DNA of 32,000 nt from Hyperthermus butylicus DSM 5456 (GCF_000015145.1 NC_008818.1:1200001-1232000); one strand, 5' to 3'; counted from the stretch's first letter, positions 4,655-21,948 are shown. The notes: generated by a model not told the origin, from the letters alone. Numbers and translations are program-made.

Positions 4655-5602
4655 CTAGCCGTCGCTTTCCACATTCCCATATTCTATGATAGGCTCCCAG
4701 CATTCCTTACAGAGGACTGCTATCTCATTGTAATTGTCTAGTTTTACGCCATCTCTTCCAACAAATGTTTCAAACACGTAGCTTGAGCTATCCATGCTTC
4801 TACGGAGCCTAACCAAAAGCCCAGGCGGCATGGTATAGAGCGTATACCCTTCTGGTGTCTTACGCGTATAGATTGGGGCCCATGTGCTAGCTGCAGCTAG
4901 GGCTTCTCCAAGGCGTATTGGGTGGATGTTTGACGCAGCTGCCAAGCCGCTGTACAGCCTGGCGAGTCCTGCGACTAAATCGGGGCCATACCCTCTTTTG
5001 CCCGCGATGCTTGTTACGTGGGTGCGATATTCTCGGAGTACGCTGTATAATTGCTCCCCATAACGGTAGATGCAGCTTCCCCATTCTATGAGCACGTCTC
5101 CGCGCGGATATAAACATGGAAGCAGGTGTTGCGCCTTCTCCACCACGGTCTCGGGTATAAGCGGGTAAATAGCTTCAGCTTCAAGCCAGCCCTTAACTAC
5201 TAGCACCTCCTCACCAATAACTAAGCCCTGCTCATTGCTAGCAAGTTGTAGTACCCACCTGCCCTCCAGAACGGTTCTCTTAACAGAGCCTATGACTGTG
5301 GACCTCCTATAGGGTAATCCATAGACGTCAATGCTCGCCGGCTTAGAGTCTACTATGATAGCTATATCAGAGATACTGAAATGTGGTAGTGGCTGCGGTA
5401 TCCAGGGCTGGGTAGGGGTTACTGGTAGGAGCTCGCTGAGGCTCTTGAACCTTGCCTGGAGCCTCGTCGTCGAACCCCTACTACTAACTAGCCTACATTC
5501 ACTACCGCTGCAGACATAGAGGGTTTCACATGTTGACTCATACTCTACCCGTATTGGTTCGCTAGTAGCGTCAATGTATACGTGTATGCTGCAGGAGGTC
5601 AA
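4655..5602 (-). CDS. Hypothetical protein (315 aa), convergent with rad50; only a weak and incomplete resemblance to NurA motif order
   Basis: Long ORF with non-repetitive, protein-like composition that fills the gap between rad50 and glnA. No diagnostic motif. IAIIVDSKP, LEAEAI and VLIEWGS are vaguely NurA-like, but the spacing and the catalytic His do not fit. Confidence 0.5.
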   Translation of the reverse strand: MTSCSIHVYIDATSEPIRVEYESTCETLYVCSGSECRLVSSRGSTTRLQARFKSLSELLPVTPTQPWIPQPLPHFSISDIAIIVDSKPASIDVYGLPYRRSTVIGSVKRTVLEGRWVLQLASNEQGLVIGEEVLVVKGWLEAEAIYPLIPETVVEKAQHLLPCLYPRGDVLIEWGSCIYRYGEQLYSVLREYRTHVTSIAGKRGYGPDLVAGLARLYSGLAAASNIHPIRLGEALAAASTWAPIYTRKTPEGYTLYTMPPGLLVRLRRSMDSSSYVFETFVGRDGVKLDNYNEIAVLCKECWEPIIEYGNVESDG

Positions 5603-5758
5603 CGCTCCAGCCCTCGCCTAGGCCGGGGGTCATAGCTTACATCTAACCCTAGTTTGGTTTACCGGTACAGACCACACAACAACAAAAAACAAAATTTCGA
5701 AGCACACGAGAGGAACACATAATATGTTGTACTGAGGAGCTTGATTCCAGGCGAAAGG

Positions 5759-7144
5759 ATGTCTGGAACTCCAGGTTCAGATCTGGACAAATTCAAGTGG
5801 TTAGAGCTGCACTACACAGACCTGGCTGGCTATCTGAGGAGTGTTACTATCGCAGCGGAGGATCTCAGAGACAATGTCGACGTAACAGGCTTTGATGGTA
5901 GTAGTGTTGAAGGCTTCACGGATATAAGTGATAGTGATCTAACACTGCGTCCAGATCTAAGTACATTGGCTGAGATACCATGGCTAGAGGCTACGGGGAG
6001 GGTAATATCAACAATATACAAGAATGGTGCTAGGTATGAGCGTGATCCACGCTACATTGCTGAACGTACTGAAAAGCTTCTTGGCGAACAAGGCCTTGAG
6101 GCTCGTATAGGTCCCGAAATAGAGTTCCACATAGTAGACAAGCTATACCTTAGTGTTGACCAGCCACAGCGCGGACTATGTTACCGCATAGTTTCAAGTG
6201 AACACCCCGGCAGTGGCAGCTATTTCGAGAAGACTAAGAAGGCATACCACACACCGGCACCCTTCGACAAAGTTTACGGGCTGCGGCTCGAGCTAGCCGA
6301 GGTTCTAAGGAAATACTTCAGAGTACATGTAGAGGTTCACCACCACGAGGTTGCTAGTGGCGGACAGATTGAGATAGACTTCCGTTATGGTGGCGTGGTA
6401 TCAGCTTCTGATGGGGTTATCACGGTCAAATACGTTGCAAGGAATATTACTGCAAGGCATGGCTATACTGCAATCTTTATGCCTAAGCCGTTCGCTGGCG
6501 ATAACGGGAATGGGATGCACGTACATATCAGCATTTGGGAGCGTCGCGGGAATGGTTTTAGAAACTTGTTCTATGACCCATCAGACGGTTATGCAGAACT
6601 GAGCCAGTACGCTAGGTACTTTATCGGGGGTCTCTTAGAGCATGGGAGAGCTCTTGCAGCAATCGTGGCACCAACCGTGAATAGTTACCGTAGGCTAATA
6701 CCAGGCTACGAGGCTCCAGTCTACCTCGTCTGGGGAAGGAGTAACCGTAGCGCAGCCATCCGTGTACCATTCTACGGCCGGGGTGCAGAGAAGTCTAAAC
6801 GCATAGAATTTAGGCCCCCCGACCCCTCCGCCAACCCATACCTGGCCTTCACCGCCATAATTGCAGCCGGCCTAGATGGTGTGAGAAAGAAGATCGAGCC
6901 GGGCGACCCCATAGACCGTAACGTCTATACTATGAGCGAGGCTGAGAAGAAGCGGCTCGGGATAAAGGAGCTGCCTAGAAGCCTAGAGGAGGCGCTAGAC
7001 GAGCTAGAGTCAGACAACGAGTTCCTACGACCATACATACCGTCAAGCGTTCTTGAAGCCTACATAGAGCTTAAGCGGCGTGAAGCCAGGGAGCTTAAAG
7101 GATATCCAAGCCCAATGGAGATCTACACATACCTCTCACTCTAA
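5759..7144 (+). CDS. glnA: Glutamine synthetase, type I
   Basis: The translation aligns by eye along its full length with GS-I: EIEFHIVD, HHHEVASGGQIEIDFRY, FMPKPFAGDNGNGMHVHISIW, NSYRRLIPGYEAPV, SNRSAAIRVP, EFRPPDPSANPYL. ATG 5759 is preferred over TTG 5741. Confidence 0.9.
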   Translation: MSGTPGSDLDKFKWLELHYTDLAGYLRSVTIAAEDLRDNVDVTGFDGSSVEGFTDISDSDLTLRPDLSTLAEIPWLEATGRVISTIYKNGARYERDPRYIAERTEKLLGEQGLEARIGPEIEFHIVDKLYLSVDQPQRGLCYRIVSSEHPGSGSYFEKTKKAYHTPAPFDKVYGLRLELAEVLRKYFRVHVEVHHHEVASGGQIEIDFRYGGVVSASDGVITVKYVARNITARHGYTAIFMPKPFAGDNGNGMHVHISIWERRGNGFRNLFYDPSDGYAELSQYARYFIGGLLEHGRALAAIVAPTVNSYRRLIPGYEAPVYLVWGRSNRSAAIRVPFYGRGAEKSKRIEFRPPDPSANPYLAFTAIIAAGLDGVRKKIEPGDPIDRNVYTMSEAEKKRLGIKELPRSLEEALDELESDNEFLRPYIPSSVLEAYIELKRREARELKGYPSPMEIYTYLSL

Positions 7145-18023: not shown

Positions 18024-18031
18024 TTTATTAA
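18024..18031 (+). promoter_or_regulatory. TATA-like box (TTTATTAA) upstream of the 18063 operon
   Basis: An A/T-rich octamer in an otherwise GC-balanced spacer, about 35 nt upstream of ATG 18063. Confidence 0.3.
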
Positions 18032-18062
18032 GGGGGGCTAGAGAGTAGAGGGTGCAGCGCTG

Positions 18063-18545
18063 ATGATATTTAAGCGACGGAGACAAGTATCGCCGCGTGT
18101 AAAGCTGCTAGAGCTAGCAGTCGCCACAAGATATGCTGTTTCCAGGTTGGGGCTGCAAGCTGCAAGGCTTAGAGCAGCATATCAGCGGACACGGGACAAG
18201 ACACTGCTGAAAATGCTCGAGAACATCGTTAGGCTTCAGGCTGTATTGGAGGTCTTGTCTGTTAGACTTGAGACACTAGCACAAATAGGCACCATATCCT
18301 CGGAGGATCTGTACACGGTGAAGCAGATAATTGCTGATCTTAAATCAGCTTATGGCGACATAGCACCAGGCATATCCAGCATGCTTGCCGACCTAGAGAA
18401 TACTGTTACCTCAATAGCTTCCCTCACAGGCCTAGAGATCCTTACCACGGGGGTAACAGTGGCTGACGAGAATGCTAGACGGATACTAGAGGAGGCTGAG
18501 CTTATAGCTAGGCAGAGGCTTGAGGAACTGATGAGACAGACATAG
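18063..18545 (+). CDS. All-helical protein with ESCRT-III/CdvB-like sequence pattern (160 aa)
   Basis: A basic N-terminus (KRRRQ) is followed by long amphipathic helices. The segment LSVRLETLAQIGTISSEDLYTVKQIIADLKSAYGDIAPGISSMLADLENTV resembles the RLET...G...P-E/G-I/L core I recall from crenarchaeal CdvB paralogs, and the C-terminal helix is acidic. This is pattern recognition only. Confidence 0.45.
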   Translation: MIFKRRRQVSPRVKLLELAVATRYAVSRLGLQAARLRAAYQRTRDKTLLKMLENIVRLQAVLEVLSVRLETLAQIGTISSEDLYTVKQIIADLKSAYGDIAPGISSMLADLENTVTSIASLTGLEILTTGVTVADENARRILEEAELIARQRLEELMRQT

Positions 18546-18546
18546 G

Positions 18547-18804
18547 GTGAAAGCGTTGAAACTCACAATAATATATCACTACCGGGATACGGGTCTCGTC
18601 CGCATAACACACTATGGAGAAGACGGCCGCAAGATAGCCGAAGAAGAATATAGGGACGTTAAAACGCTAGTTGTGAAGACTCCAGTCCTGCTCCCCCGGG
18701 GGATGCATCACGCTATAACAGCATACGTCATAGAGGGGGGAGCCCGCATAATAGCTAGGGATGGCATATTGATAGTCGAGGGTGGGGACGGGGAGGCTGG
18801 ATGA
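18547..18804 (+). CDS. Hypothetical small protein (85 aa), beta-rich
   Basis: GTG 18547 lies 1 nt after the upstream stop. The composition is protein-like and no motif is recognised. Confidence 0.5.
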   Translation: MKALKLTIIYHYRDTGLVRITHYGEDGRKIAEEEYRDVKTLVVKTPVLLPRGMHHAITAYVIEGGARIIARDGILIVEGGDGEAG

Positions 18805-19199
18805 TCAACGTAAAGATAGAGATGAGTAAGAGCCGTACAGGGAGGCATGCAGCTCGCAGCCTGGCGCTACTCGTCTCCGAGGAGGGCGATATTGTAGAGG
18901 CTAAGCCTAGGAGGATAGCTGAGACTAAACCGCTTTACAGCAGGGGGCGCGCCTACATAGCATCTATTGACGTGCCGGAAGGCTGGTACCTGGTCTACGT
19001 ATATCTCGTGAAGAATCTTAGGGGTCACGTTAAGGGTTATATTGAGGTCTATTCCAGGGATGCCGAGCTACTCTACCGCGCAGTGTACCGGAAGTTAAAG
19101 CTCAGGTTTAGCAAGGGGGACCCGCACTATGCTTGGATTGTTAGACGGGTAGCCGAGTACCTTAAGCTGCCAGTCAAAAACTATAATCTAGAGCCGTAG
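18801..19199 (+). CDS. Hypothetical protein (132 aa)
   Basis: ATGA overlap with the upstream gene (18801-18804). Basic and aromatic-rich (WYLVYVYLVKNLRGHVKGYIEVY). No motif recognised. Confidence 0.55.
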   Translation: MINVKIEMSKSRTGRHAARSLALLVSEEGDIVEAKPRRIAETKPLYSRGRAYIASIDVPEGWYLVYVYLVKNLRGHVKGYIEVYSRDAELLYRAVYRKLKLRFSKGDPHYAWIVRRVAEYLKLPVKNYNLEP

Positions 19200-19212
19200 G
19201 AGTAGAGAATGG

Positions 19213-19602
19213 GTGGCCGATGACCGGGGCTCAGAGGCTTACCCTCTGCGGGGATGTAGACTTCACGGACCGGGGGAGGCCGTACATCACTTGGCACAGG
19301 CTAGGAGAAGGCTTTTGGAGCGTAAGCTTAAGGAGATGCTCCTAGAGCAAGCGAAGAGAGCTGGTATAAGTCCAGAGCAGCTTGCCGAGTGGCTCTACGA
19401 GTCTGCCGGTATACGGGTTAAAGCTACGTGGCATGATGTCGAGAGGGAGGTTCTACGATCAGACGAGGTTTCAGCACAGGAGCTTGCGGCCTACCTGCTC
19501 TCCGAGGGTGTTGAGGTAGATGAGAGTAAGTGGCTCGATATACTTAGGCAGCATGGCTTGTCAAAGAGCATCCCACGCCTACCTCGGGAAGGTGAAAAGT
19601 AG
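19213..19602 (+). CDS. Hypothetical helical protein (start uncertain: GTG 19213 or ATG 19336)
   Basis: The C-terminal 88 codons (MLLEQAKRAGISPEQLAEWLYES...) look genuinely coding. The first ~40 codons are R/G/H-rich and overlap an alternative-frame 41-codon ORF (19220-19345). Confidence 0.45.
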   Translation: MADDRGSEAYPLRGCRLHGPGEAVHHLAQARRRLLERKLKEMLLEQAKRAGISPEQLAEWLYESAGIRVKATWHDVEREVLRSDEVSAQELAAYLLSEGVEVDESKWLDILRQHGLSKSIPRLPREGEK

Positions 19603-19605
19603 GCC

Positions 19606-20184
19606 TTGTGCGAGTCTCTAAGGCATCTAGAACGCTTGCCTTGTGGCAAGCTGCGCGACTGTATAGATATGCTTGCAATACTGTTTGCAGCTTCCAATCT
19701 AGGCCCCATAGGTAGGCCTAGCCTCTCAACACTCATTGGTATTGGTGAGAAACGCGTACGAAACCTTGTAGCAAAGCTTCGCAGCGCTGGGCTTGTTAAG
19801 GCTTCACGGGCAGGAATTACGTCGGACGGGATGCAAGGAGTGTTGTGCCTCAGTTCTGGGGGCTACACTATAGCCCTTGCAGCATGTAGCAGGGCAGTAG
19901 CCGAGCTGATGCTTCGCAGCATAGTAGCTCTGAGAGATAAGCTTGTAATCCTAACGGGAAGCCCAGCCATACTCGAGGTCATAGGCTACATAGACTCGAA
20001 CGGTGCTACCGTCTTCCCGGGGCTTGGCTTGGAGCTCTCGGAGAAATATGCAAGGCTCGTCAGCGAGATAGGTAGCAGGGAGACCTGCAGGAGCGTAGGT
20101 GGCTGCCTCGTAGCCGTATTCAACTTGCCGGACTGCTATCGCTGCTGTGCAAGTTTCTTACAGGCACTGGCTATGTCCGGGTAG
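19606..20184 (+). CDS. Winged-helix DNA-binding protein with Cys-rich C-terminal domain (wHTH + DUF4443-like architecture, from memory)
   Basis: The N-terminus GPIGRPSLSTLIGIGEKRVRNLVAKLRSAGLV is a typical wHTH recognition unit. The C-terminal ~110 aa domain ends in CYRCC. TTG 19606 lies 3 nt after the upstream stop. Confidence 0.55.
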   Translation: MCESLRHLERLPCGKLRDCIDMLAILFAASNLGPIGRPSLSTLIGIGEKRVRNLVAKLRSAGLVKASRAGITSDGMQGVLCLSSGGYTIALAACSRAVAELMLRSIVALRDKLVILTGSPAILEVIGYIDSNGATVFPGLGLELSEKYARLVSEIGSRETCRSVGGCLVAVFNLPDCYRCCASFLQALAMSG

Positions 20185-20729
20185 TTCTCAGCTATCTCCC
20201 TAACCCTGGAGACCCCGTCTATGTAGTCTATTATCTCTGCGACAGGTTCGGGTACATGTAGACGCCACTCATCAGAGCCAAGAAGCATTAAGCACCTGAT
20301 ATACTCGCCTGACCAGACAGACTTATTGCGTAGCGGTGGCGTAACGGTCTTCACCCCGGCGTCGCGAAACGCCCTGCTTACAGCTGGATTCGCCGTTGCC
20401 ACTGCTTCCACGGGCGGCACGTAGCCGAGAACGAAGCCTGCATTGCCAGCATAGACTGAGAGGGTCTGTATCGTCGCTGTAACTATCCTGGCTAGATTGA
20501 GGCCTGCCCACTCGAGCGCAGCCCTAATCATTAAAAGTCTCTCGCCAGCCGTGAACGGGTTTAGCCAGGTATGGCTTTCATCAGCCATTCCAACGAGTAT
20601 TACGACTTCCTGATACCTCTCGTAGAGCCACTTGACAGCCTCCAGGTGCCCTAGGTGGAATGGCTGGAACCTGCCAAAGAATAGTACACGTCCACGCCCA
20701 AGCCTCCGGTAGGCATTCTGGAACCACAA
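20136..20729 (-). CDS. nadM: Nicotinamide-nucleotide adenylyltransferase, archaeal type
   Basis: GRFQPFHLGHLEAVKWL (nt ~20646-20675) followed by VILVGMADESHT..NPFTAGER. In-frame TTG 20729 gives a family-typical ~198 aa. The 20730-21035 extension is R/S/P-rich and overlaps the divergent gene. Confidence 0.85.
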   Translation of the reverse strand: MWFQNAYRRLGRGRVLFFGRFQPFHLGHLEAVKWLYERYQEVVILVGMADESHTWLNPFTAGERLLMIRAALEWAGLNLARIVTATIQTLSVYAGNAGFVLGYVPPVEAVATANPAVSRAFRDAGVKTVTPPLRNKSVWSGEYIRCLMLLGSDEWRLHVPEPVAEIIDYIDGVSRVREIAENYPDIASACKKLAQQR

Positions 20730-20805
20730 TAGTATGCACCTCTTAGTCCTGCCCGCTAACTTAGAATCCCAGCTCCACGGCCTCTCAGCGCCTCGGGGCA
20801 TAATA

Positions 20806-21948
20806 GTGGCTCGGCTAGTCTGCTTCGTCGTCAACCCTCTAGCCGGTATAGGTGGGCCCCTAGCACTCAGGGGCAGCGATGGCAGTGCAGGGCTAGAAGC
20901 GCTTCGTAGGGGTGCAAGGCTTGTATCCCCTGAGCGTGCTCGCGTCTTTGCTGAGGAGTGCAAGCGTCTACGGCTAGGGGAGAGGATAGTCTTCCTAACA
21001 GCCTCAGGAGTCATGGGAGAGACGCCCCTAAGCAAGGCAGGCTTTGCGTCATACCATGTTGTCTACCATCCGGACAGCTGGCCCACAAACCCCCACGATA
21101 CCATGGAGACGGTTCGGGCCTGCATAGCCCGTGGCGCCGAGATAGTTGTATTCGTTGGAGGTGACGGAACTGCCCGCGACGTAGTGTCCGCACTGCACGA
21201 AGTTGGTGCTGCCAACACACCGATTCTTGGTGTACCCTCCGGTGTCAAGGTCTACAGCTCAGTCTTTGCAGAAAACCCTCGTGCAGCCGCCCATGTACTT
21301 GCCGAATGGCTTGATCACGGCACTACATGTGAAGGCGAAGTAGTGGATATAGATGAGGATGCATTTCGTGCAAACATGCTGAGAGCACGCCTGTACACTA
21401 TAGCAAGGACTCCTTGCAGCCCATTAATGGTTGGGGCTAGCAAACAACCAACACCCTCCACGGAGGAGGAAGAGGAGAATAAGAGAGCTATAGCACGCTA
21501 CCTGGCGGAGAACATGGAGGAATGCACCCTCTACATTCTAGGCCCCGGCACAACAGTCAAGGCTATAGCAGATGAGCTAGGTGTTGAGAAGACCCTGCTG
21601 GGGGTAGACGTAGTACACAACCGTAGGCTTGTAGCCGCAGATGTTGACGAGAAAACACTTTACAACATTGTGGCCAGGCACCTAGAAGGAGGCGGCAGGG
21701 TAAAGATAGTCGTGACACCTATTGGAGGGCAGGGCTACATCTTTGGAAGAGGTAACCAGCAGATATCGCCCAGGATACTGAGGCTCGTAGGCCGAGACAA
21801 CATTATAGTAGTTGCAACAAAATCTAAACTCTCAAAGCTGAAACGGTTAAGAGTCGATACGGGAGATGAAAAGGTTGACGAGATGCTTAGAGGCTATATA
21901 CGTGTCGTAACAGACTACGGCGAAGAGACCGTGGTGCGTGTAGAGTAG
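20806..21948 (+). CDS. ATP-NAD kinase/diacylglycerol-kinase-fold protein (COG3199-type putative NAD kinase)
   Basis: N-terminus FVVNPLAGIGG, VFVGGDGTARDV (GGDGT at nt 21157-21171) and PSGVKVYS. GTG 20806 is preferred because the product then starts directly at the conserved N-terminal segment (MARLVCFVVNPLAG). Confidence 0.65.
   Translation: MARLVCFVVNPLAGIGGPLALRGSDGSAGLEALRRGARLVSPERARVFAEECKRLRLGERIVFLTASGVMGETPLSKAGFASYHVVYHPDSWPTNPHDTMETVRACIARGAEIVVFVGGDGTARDVVSALHEVGAANTPILGVPSGVKVYSSVFAENPRAAAHVLAEWLDHGTTCEGEVVDIDEDAFRANMLRARLYTIARTPCSPLMVGASKQPTPSTEEEEENKRAIARYLAENMEECTLYILGPGTTVKAIADELGVEKTLLGVDVVHNRRLVAADVDEKTLYNIVARHLEGGGRVKIVVTPIGGQGYIFGRGNQQISPRILRLVGRDNIIVVATKSKLSKLKRLRVDTGDEKVDEMLRGYIRVVTDYGEETVVRVE

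Follow-up and report, generated by a model that had tools for sequence, protein, structure and literature searches.

Does the cluster of small genes behind a CdvB3-like gene of Hyperthermus butylicus form a dedicated ESCRT-III machine, or have its genes come together from different sources? The analysed stretch of 32,000 nucleotides (nt) (CP000493 1,200,001-1,232,000; hereafter the window, whose first letter is position 1) had been read, in an original prediction made from the sequence, as holding a single translationally coupled five-gene operon in which an ESCRT-III paralogue is hard-wired to orphan proteins and to its own regulator. The five same-strand open reading frames (ORFs) are all there, on the plus strand and at the predicted coordinates. 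The reading we favour, with about even confidence, is that the locus is a composite of three evolutionary units that stand together in Pyrodictiaceae, and not one dedicated ESCRT-III machine: ORF1; ORF2 and ORF3 with a kink-turn-like RNA at the ORF3 3' end; and the pair ORF4 and ORF5.

18063-18545, plus strand: ORF1, CdvB3-class ESCRT-III paralogue of 160 aa (A2BM29/ABM81040), from profiles, AlphaFold2 (AF2) fold and a published listing
18547-18804, plus strand: ORF2, 82-85 aa, no recognisable family, start probably TTG 18556
18801-19199, plus strand: ORF3, basic, all-beta protein closed by a C-terminal helix, from an uncharacterised family spread across Desulfurococcales
19213-19284, plus strand: kink-turn-like non-coding RNA element of ~70 nt, conserved at the 3' end of ORF3, between ORF3 and ORF4
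19291-19602, plus strand: ORF4, ~103 aa, start probably to be revised from GTG 19213 to TTG 19291, function without assignment
19606-20184, plus strand: ORF5 (Hbut_1210), PH0730-type winged helix-turn-helix (wHTH) regulator, profile match to PDB 2p8t

The ORF1 product is 100% identical to a Hyperthermus butylicus protein, and since the coordinates listed for CdvB3 of this organism by Frohn et al. 2022 (PMC8970359, S2 Table: A2BM29/ABM81040.1, COG5491, arCOG00452, CP000493 1218063..1218545) equal positions 18063-18545 of the window, ORF1 is the catalogued H. butylicus CdvB3 gene and not a new find. Its predicted kinship with ESCRT-III/CdvB proteins was borne out by profile and structure comparisons. 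The NCBIfam models CdvB3, CdvB1_B2 and CdvB matched residues 47-157 with E-values of 3.6e-12 to 3.8e-10, all far under the curated cut-offs; ORF1 reached 46.3 bits on the CdvB3 equivalog (NF041009, cut-off 170) and 46.0 bits on the CdvB1/B2 model, and because these two scores are equal the hidden Markov models cannot assign its class. Pfam Snf7 (PF03357), the profile proposed for checking the claim, gave no match at E <= 1. A family profile built from 16 members matched PDB 9s97 (CdvB2) at E 3.5e-14 and 9s9j (CdvB) at E 6e-8. In the AF2 model (predicted local distance difference test, pLDDT, 89.9) five helices (11-43, 46-75, 80-97, 102-122, 131-158) form a core with a long alpha1-alpha2 hairpin, and Foldseek ranked CdvB2 filaments first (template modelling score, TM, 0.67-0.71; E 2e-5), then CdvB, then IST1/CHMP1B. 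An ESCRT-III-like fold, on whose presence the original prediction depended, was thus recovered for the 18063 product.

ORF1 ends at residue 160, two residues past helix 5, and consists of the alpha1-alpha5 core only, with a basic N-terminus. It therefore has the bare Snf7 core by which the CdvB3 class is defined (PMC8970359) and, as published for that class (PMC8970359; PMC5840170), neither a MIM2 nor a C-terminal winged helix. By sequence and predicted fold ORF1 is a true ESCRT-III protein, while its class rests on the published phylogeny and arCOG00452, from which we take over the orthology with Sulfolobus CdvB3. With the Sulfolobales Saci_1601 class (arCOG00452), the shortest crenarchaeal ESCRT-III paralogue, it shares the length of ~160 aa and a position away from the cdvABC locus, and its fold matches the solved CdvB2 and CdvB structures (9s97-9s99, 9s9j); the low NCBIfam CdvB3 score and the silence of Pfam Snf7 set it apart from Sulfolobales CdvB3. 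CdvA and CdvC are absent from the window, as had been stated, and this is expected, as the genome has CdvA, CdvB and CdvC elsewhere, at ~790-795 kb (Frohn et al. 2022, PMC8970359, S2 Table).

Reading the junctions between the genes changed the picture of the operon. The 4-nt ATGA overlap of ORF2 and ORF3 (18801-18804) and the 3-nt gap between ORF4 and TTG 19606 of ORF5 were confirmed; an invariant Met-x-Cys N-terminus favours this ORF5 start, from which the deposited Hbut_1210 (182 aa) is 10 residues shorter. A 1-nt gap between ORF1 and ORF2 is literally there (stop 18543-18545, GTG 18547), but the real gap is probably 10 nt, because ORF2 homologues align with TTG 18556, the likely true start, preceded by GGGTG at 18545-18549, 6 nt upstream. 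The 13-nt junction proposed between ORF3 and ORF4 is probably wrong, the space being filled by the conserved non-coding element (19213-19284). The first ~26 codons past GTG 19213 are conserved at the nucleotide level, but their frame differs from that of the ORF4 body in three related loci (L012, L014 and L007; related loci are given as L with a number), and the homologues of ORF4 (104-107 aa) have their start where TTG 19291 lies. The ORF4 start probably moves there, thus leading to an ORF3-ORF4 gap of 91 nt here and ~110 nt in relatives. Operon-like spacing is found at ORF1/ORF2 (1 or 10 nt), ORF2/ORF3 and ORF4/ORF5, but not at ORF3/ORF4. Tight gene spacing is typical of archaeal clusters and is by itself not beyond chance. 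Because a conserved structured non-coding element parts ORF3 from ORF4, a single translationally coupled five-gene operon is doubtful: judged from the sequence, the five genes are probably not one operon, and co-transcription of ORF1-ORF3 is plausible from their spacing.

Upstream of ORF1, two short signals were considered.

18024-18031, plus strand: TATA-like box TTTATTAA, putative promoter, position not kept in relatives
18050-18054, plus strand: Shine-Dalgarno-like GGGTG, 8 nt upstream of the ORF1 ATG

The box on which the single promoter had been placed is present as a sequence, but relatives have no AT-rich box at a fixed distance upstream of ORF1. Among the upstream regions of the eleven loci compared, the only common feature is the Shine-Dalgarno-like GGGTG, and in most related loci GGGTG or GGTG precedes the start of ORF1 by 8-12 nt.

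The element that parts ORF3 from ORF4 has the following components.

19216-19218 with 19278-19280, plus strand: C helix GCC/GGC
19219-19223 with 19276-19277, plus strand: GAU bulge and tandem G:A
19262-19279, plus strand: invariant TTCACGGACCGGGGGAGG, after a variable apical hairpin
19275-19279, plus strand: GGAGG, likely ORF4 Shine-Dalgarno sequence, in the 3' strand of the element

It was found at 14 loci: 13 of Pyrodictiaceae type (the window, where it occurs as a single copy, L002-L005, L007, L011-L014, L020, L061 and L084) and one in Fervidicoccaceae (L137:4406-4478). In every Pyrodictiaceae-type locus the invariant blocks CCGAUGAC.G and UUCACGGACCG..GGAGG bracket the variable hairpin, although the flanking proteins are only 35-65% identical. 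Three of the copies (L020, L061, L084) came from a metagenome scan with a loose pattern, from whose 120 loci, most of them chance matches, the real copies were recovered by filtering. The diverged copy of the AT-rich L137, again at the 3' end of ORF3, was found by a covariance model (37.7 bits, E 1e-7; 61-84 bits for the other copies). All Pyrodictiaceae-type copies read 5'-GCC GAU GA CC / 5'-GG GA GGC and that of L137 reads GGG GAU GA UC / GA GA CUC, so that a C helix, a 3-nt bulge, tandem G:A/A:G pairs and an NC helix, as expected for a kink-turn, are all present as a sequence pattern. The C helix is 100% paired and each of its three pairs changes on both sides in some sequence, becoming CCC/GGG in L013 and GGG/CUC in L137, where the 3b:3n C-G pair becomes U-A. 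Over the 14 sequences 92.8% of cells are paired and 6 of 8 pairs change on both sides, which none of 500 shuffles reached, in an alignment that was fitted to the structure model and so favours structure. Minimum-free-energy z-scores of single sequences were not significant and no better than those of shuffles, and the support for the structure comes from covariation. Rfam returned no significant family and no match below E 0.18. Four other identities were rejected on inspection of the sequence: a hammerhead-like ribozyme (CUGAUGA...GAAA is not conserved), an H/ACA RNA (no ACA box), a bulge-helix-bulge splice motif (the two bulges lie opposite one another) and a DNA operator with GACCGGGG as its direct repeat (the repeats stand at variable distances of 38-55 bp and the helices covary).

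ORF2 and ORF3, described in the original prediction as orphans, belong to a wider lineage. An exhaustive profile search collected for ORF3 76 clusters at 50% identity with E <= 0.001 (72 of them at E <= 1e-10), all but one single-domain and of ~75-165 aa, the named members being from metagenome-assembled genomes of Desulfurococcales, Desulfurococcaceae and Fervidicoccaceae. Residues S11, H16, Y46 and G49 are invariant in the family. The predicted structure is confident (pLDDT 96.7) and consists of nine to ten strands and a C-terminal helix; Foldseek found no fold match to it in the PDB (best E 0.12, TM 0.35 or less), nor did the family match Pfam or PDB sequence profiles. The protein has an isoelectric point of 9.9 and no hydrophobic segment; indeed none of the five proteins has a hydrophobic segment typical of a membrane span. 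For ORF2, every Pyrodictiaceae-type locus, and L020 as well, has a homologue of 74-90 aa immediately before ORF3, and weak ORF2-like matches occupy the same position in L015 and L137 (both E 0.002). ORF2 had no match among Pfam and PDB profiles, and scans of ORF2-ORF4 with Pfam, NCBIfam, PHROG and PADLOC gave nothing meaningful.

Outside Pyrodictiaceae, ORF3 lies in four further contexts.

L015, Desulfurococcaceae: TruD, PTH2, 93-aa ORF2-like gene, ORF3, TRAM, RFC
L137, Fervidicoccaceae: 82-aa ORF2-like gene, ORF3, RNA element, PF0610-like gene, QPRTase
L016 and L138-L140, third clade: ORF3 next to, or running into, the start of a DEAD/Helicase_C/MZB helicase gene
L008-L010: ORF3 after FrhB

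The ORF1-family profile revealed no ESCRT-III-like ORF around ORF3 in L008, L015, L016 and L137-L140. The helicases of the third clade, which belongs to Desulfurococcales (L016:4989-7741, L138:4001-6693, L139:4001-6699, L140:4001-6684) are DEAD/Helicase_C/MZB (DUF1998) proteins of 757-760 aa, separated from ORF3 by anything from a 5-nt gap to a 34-nt overlap, with a TRAM-domain gene nearby. These helicase and TRAM neighbours hint at a nucleic-acid role for the ORF3 family. As a Desulfurococcales-wide family with a confident predicted fold and no solved relative, it is a concrete, testable lead.

In Pyrodictiaceae-type loci, taken from genomes and metagenomes and including Pyrofollis japonicus, the order is conserved: OTCase, two small genes, AglB, ORF1, (PF0610-like), ORF2, ORF3, RNA element, ORF4, ORF5, NMNAT (minus strand), NAD kinase and an M50 protease. 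Since this synteny reaches well past the five genes and takes in unrelated housekeeping genes, the shared order alone says little on function. The hard-wiring of an ESCRT-III protein to its neighbours thus turns out to be mostly family-level synteny, applying equally to AglB, NMNAT, NAD kinase and the M50 protease, and ORF3 does without a nearby ESCRT-III-like gene in Desulfurococcaceae, Fervidicoccaceae and the third clade. The gene neighbourhood is conserved in every Pyrodictiaceae-type locus examined; in other lineages ORF3 has no ESCRT-III-like neighbour, with the exception of one metagenomic contig (L020). ORF3 is also the best-conserved gene of the cluster (61-72% identity across related loci, vs 36-57% for ORF1), and in a direct homologue search the ORF1 family was confined to Pyrodictiaceae-type genomes.

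Most Pyrodictiaceae-type loci read at this point hold a sixth gene between ORF1 and ORF2, of ~107 aa, encoding a PF0610-like wHTH with a Zn-ribbon.

L007:5359-5697; L012:4404-4724; L013:4386-4706; L014:4353-4679: PF0610-like gene between ORF1 and ORF2

PF0610-type proteins (wHTH with rubredoxin-like Zn-ribbon, PF21476/PF23470) thus have a member in the ancestral cluster and likewise beside ORF3 in Fervidicoccaceae (L137:4577-4909). H. butylicus differs in having no such gene between ORF1 and ORF2 (18545-18547) or anywhere in the 32-kb window, and none separates the two genes in L011. The locus is thereby clarified: a known CdvB3 gene, corrected gene starts and one gene missing relative to relatives.

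ORF4 and ORF5 make up the third unit. ORF4 was detected only in loci of the Pyrodictiaceae-type cluster; its Pfam matches were weak and inconsistent (HTH_32, SinI), and PDB sequence profiles gave nothing. ORF5 had been predicted to be a wHTH protein with a Cys-rich C-terminus, and this was upheld. Its profile matched PH0730 (PDB 2p8t) over residues 18-164 at E 8.4e-8, that is, over the N-terminal winged helix and most of the C-terminal domain, and the N-domains of CggR at E 1e-6, in line with a likeness to the CggR/SorC N-terminal wHTH domain. In Pfam, CggR_N (E 2.4e-6) and PH0730-like_N (9e-5) matched below cut-off, and both matched 5 of 5 family members under the gathering scores. The earlier hint at DUF4443 came close, as the PH0730 match spans both domains, but Pfam DUF4443 itself did not match. 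A word-indexed homologue search returned only ORF5. Five cysteines are invariant (C2, C81, C94, C180 and C181, the last two in a CY.CC tail), a difference from PH0730, since four of them lie outside the aligned region; they suggest a metal or redox site. PH0730 itself is a protein without assigned function.

How the three units would work can be outlined as follows. By analogy with Sulfolobus CdvB3, ORF1 most likely assembles together with the other CdvB paralogues, either at the division ring or where budding takes place; lacking MIM2 and the winged-helix tail, it could not itself be gripped by CdvC/Vps4. ORF2, ORF3 and the kink-turn-like RNA would form a widely conserved unit in which ORF3 most likely handles nucleic acid, probably RNA, rather than remodelling membranes, a role proposed from its basic charge and from its neighbours elsewhere (PF0610-type, TRAM and DEAD/MZB helicase genes). 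ORF4 and ORF5 would be a Pyrodictiaceae-specific pair, with ORF5 as a PH0730-type DNA-binding regulator, perhaps sensing metal or redox state. The putative ORF4 Shine-Dalgarno sequence lies in the non-bulged strand of the kink-turn, spanning the tandem G:A and the C helix, and because of this position the binding of L7Ae or of another kink-turn protein would fold the element and shut off translation of ORF4-ORF5. The model is the l7ae 5' untranslated region (5'-UTR), in which a kink-turn with a GAU bulge folds on binding L7Ae, so that the Shine-Dalgarno sequence is masked (Daume et al. 2017, PMC5539422; Huang et al. 2019, PMC6298567). In both cases this sequence is built into or beside the C helix and 3b:3n is a Watson-Crick pair, which prevents ion-induced folding of kink-turns (PMC5539422; PMC6298567), so that folding of the present element should need a protein. 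Differently from the l7ae switch, the downstream genes are ORF4-ORF5 and not l7ae, and the element is longer (~70 nt), containing an invariant 11-mer and a variable hairpin in addition; it is found behind ORF3 even without ORF4, its Fervidicoccaceae copy lacks GGAGG, and L7Ae binding is here putative. GGAGG stands 8-11 nt before the likely ORF4 start in most loci that keep ORF4, and 4 nt before the first candidate start in L012 and L013. The element could be a second natural case of kink-turn translational control outside l7ae itself, or else an atypical C/D-like small RNA (sRNA), and is the freshest lead of the locus; together with the ORF3 family it is the part worth following.

Several observations weigh against the composite reading or against parts of it. 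In L011, L020 and L137 the element accompanies ORF3 with ORF4 and ORF5 missing, and since the 3' strand of L137 has no GGAGG, Shine-Dalgarno occlusion cannot be its only or ancestral role; it may be a secondary use. The RNA structure involves few base pairs with folding energies like those of shuffles, and only charge and neighbours speak for a nucleic-acid role of ORF3. The gene after ORF1 follows closely in several genomes: the distance is 1 or 10 nt in H. butylicus, L011 has an overlap of 29 nt, and L012-L014 range from a 4-nt overlap to a gap of 30 nt. Finally, L020, a metagenomic contig of 2.9 kb with an ORF3 of only 51% identity, carries a truncated ESCRT-III-like gene and behind it, in this order, an ORF2-like gene, ORF3 and the RNA element. 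Its 113-aa helical ESCRT-III-like protein is akin to the central part of ORF1 (89.5% probability in hhalign; hmmsearch E 8.5e-8). The flanks are unlike those of Pyrodictiaceae, with small ORFs (one membrane-protein-like) instead of AglB and, on the other side, a convergent gene that reads from its sequence as radical-SAM-like. This arrangement, in different surroundings, is what a functional ORF1-ORF2-ORF3 link would predict, and such a link is possible.

A first alternative, close to the original prediction and unlikely in our judgement, is that ORF1-ORF5 are one operon for a dedicated ESCRT-III accessory module in division, vesicle formation or membrane repair, with ORF2-ORF4 as adaptors or cargo-binding partners of the CdvB3-like subunit and ORF5 as the operon's own regulator. 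The common strand and tight spacing, the retention of the cluster in every Pyrodictiaceae-type locus examined and the order on L020 all agree with it, and as CdvB3-class proteins have no known route of recruitment or removal (PMC8970359), unknown partners are plausible. What tells against the module is that ORF2-ORF3 occur without an ESCRT-III-like neighbour in at least four other contexts, that the Pyrodictiaceae synteny includes unrelated housekeeping genes on both sides, and that the conserved structured element, over ~90-110 nt, splits ORF3 from ORF4. Moreover, L011 and L020 have kept ORF1-ORF3 but have lost ORF4/ORF5 or have other genes in their place: in L011 the RNA element is kept with ORF1-ORF2-ORF3, ORF4/ORF5 were not detected downstream, and their place is taken by two small PaREP1-family genes on the opposite strand (L011:6115-6404), followed by a 191-aa gene without identification. 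The proposed partners carry no membrane segment and no MIT, MIM or PRC-barrel signature. Evidence that the neighbours work with ESCRT-III is thus weak, and a dedicated accessory module, though possible, is weakly supported.

A second, rather improbable alternative concerns the RNA: positions 19213-19284 would be an independent gene for an atypical C/D-box-like sRNA at the ORF3 3' end, unconnected to ORF4 regulation, whose invariant 11-mer UUCACGGACCG (complement CGGUCCGUGAA) would guide 2'-O-methylation of a conserved rRNA or tRNA site. Many archaeal sRNA genes are lodged at the 3' ends of other genes. Box-like motifs do occur in order (GAUGA; CUGA in L013, L014, L020, L084 and L137; GAUG/AUGA; xxGA), and the Rfam matches, all sub-threshold, were to archaeal or eukaryotic C/D families in 6 of 7 cases for L137 and in the only case for the window (sR60, sR39, sR17, sR49, SNORD43 and sR24; E 0.18-6.4). 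The persistence of the element beside ORF3 where no ORF4 follows, and an 11-mer extremely conserved across GC-rich and AT-rich genomes, are also as expected of a guide. Set against the archaeal C/D-box pattern (RUGAUGA, CUGA, terminal stem, C'/D', ~12-nt spacers), though, only the GAUGA core and some internal CUGA are present. The D box reads GGGA or GAGA, not CUGA, and spacers are 13-16 nt; there is no terminal stem in the C/D register, the covarying stem implying instead a Kt-7-like register with a GAU bulge, and none of the Rfam matches reaches significance. The window contains no rRNA or tRNA in which a guide target could be sought.

To a third possibility, that the CdvB3-like gene, ORF2, ORF3 and the kink-turn RNA are one functional unit, we give only a slim chance. 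A ribonucleoprotein of ORF3 and the conserved RNA would then be coupled to a MIM-less ESCRT-III subunit. Its task might be to bring RNA or nucleic acid into ESCRT-dependent vesicles, or else to guide CdvB3 to the place where it acts; lineages with ORF3 beside a helicase or PF0610-like gene would have kept only the RNA-handling half. The recruitment and removal of CdvB3 are puzzling because the class is without the motif gripped by Vps4/CdvC, and a conserved partner set would be valuable; it is not established by the present evidence.

Least probable by far, that ORF2-ORF5 are the remnant of an integrated virus, plasmid or defence island beside cdvB3 is suggested by the PaREP1 genes in the ORF4-ORF5 place of L011 and by a weak fold similarity (E 3e-3, TM ~0.5) of the ORF3 model to proteins from filamentous and rod-shaped viruses of Sulfolobales, but the composition is that of the flanks, the synteny is stable across the whole family, no PHROG or PADLOC family matched significantly, no tRNA gene was found in the window and nothing integrase-like was noticed (direct repeats were not searched for), and a viral or mobile origin was rejected on the ground that neither sequence relatives of ORF3 nor the RNA motif turned up in 2.9 million viral contigs. 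The structural matches concerned, found by Foldseek in BFVD, are borderline (E 3e-3 to 5e-2, TM 0.4-0.5); the proteins matched, all uncharacterised, come from Sulfolobales Beppu filamentous phage 1, Sulfolobales Beppu rod-shaped virus 1 and Acidianus rod-shaped virus 2.

As to novelty, no mention of Hbut_1205-1210 was found in the literature searched, and no CdvB3 neighbourhood is treated in the ESCRT survey that Makarova and colleagues published in 2024. The arrangement as such appears undescribed, as had been claimed, but its ESCRT-III member is known from the listing of Frohn et al. 2022.

In two contexts unrelated to each other the ORF3 cluster is bordered by genes of NAD metabolism, which may be a coincidence: NMNAT and NAD kinase in Pyrodictiaceae (20136-21948 in the window), and in Fervidicoccaceae a YjeF_N/carbohydrate-kinase gene (L137:404-2017) and QPRTase (5199-6371). 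In the window, the 3' end of ORF5 overlaps the convergent NMNAT gene by 49 nt (20136-20184), an overlap that is kept in relatives (e.g. L004 7861-7933, L013 6370-6391). The NMNAT ORF of 299 aa (20136-21035, minus strand) is over-extended, family matches starting at residue 116; the gene itself encodes ~184 aa and spans roughly 20136-20690, and the overlap of the longer ORF with that of NAD kinase (20734-21948, plus strand) is an ORF-calling artefact.

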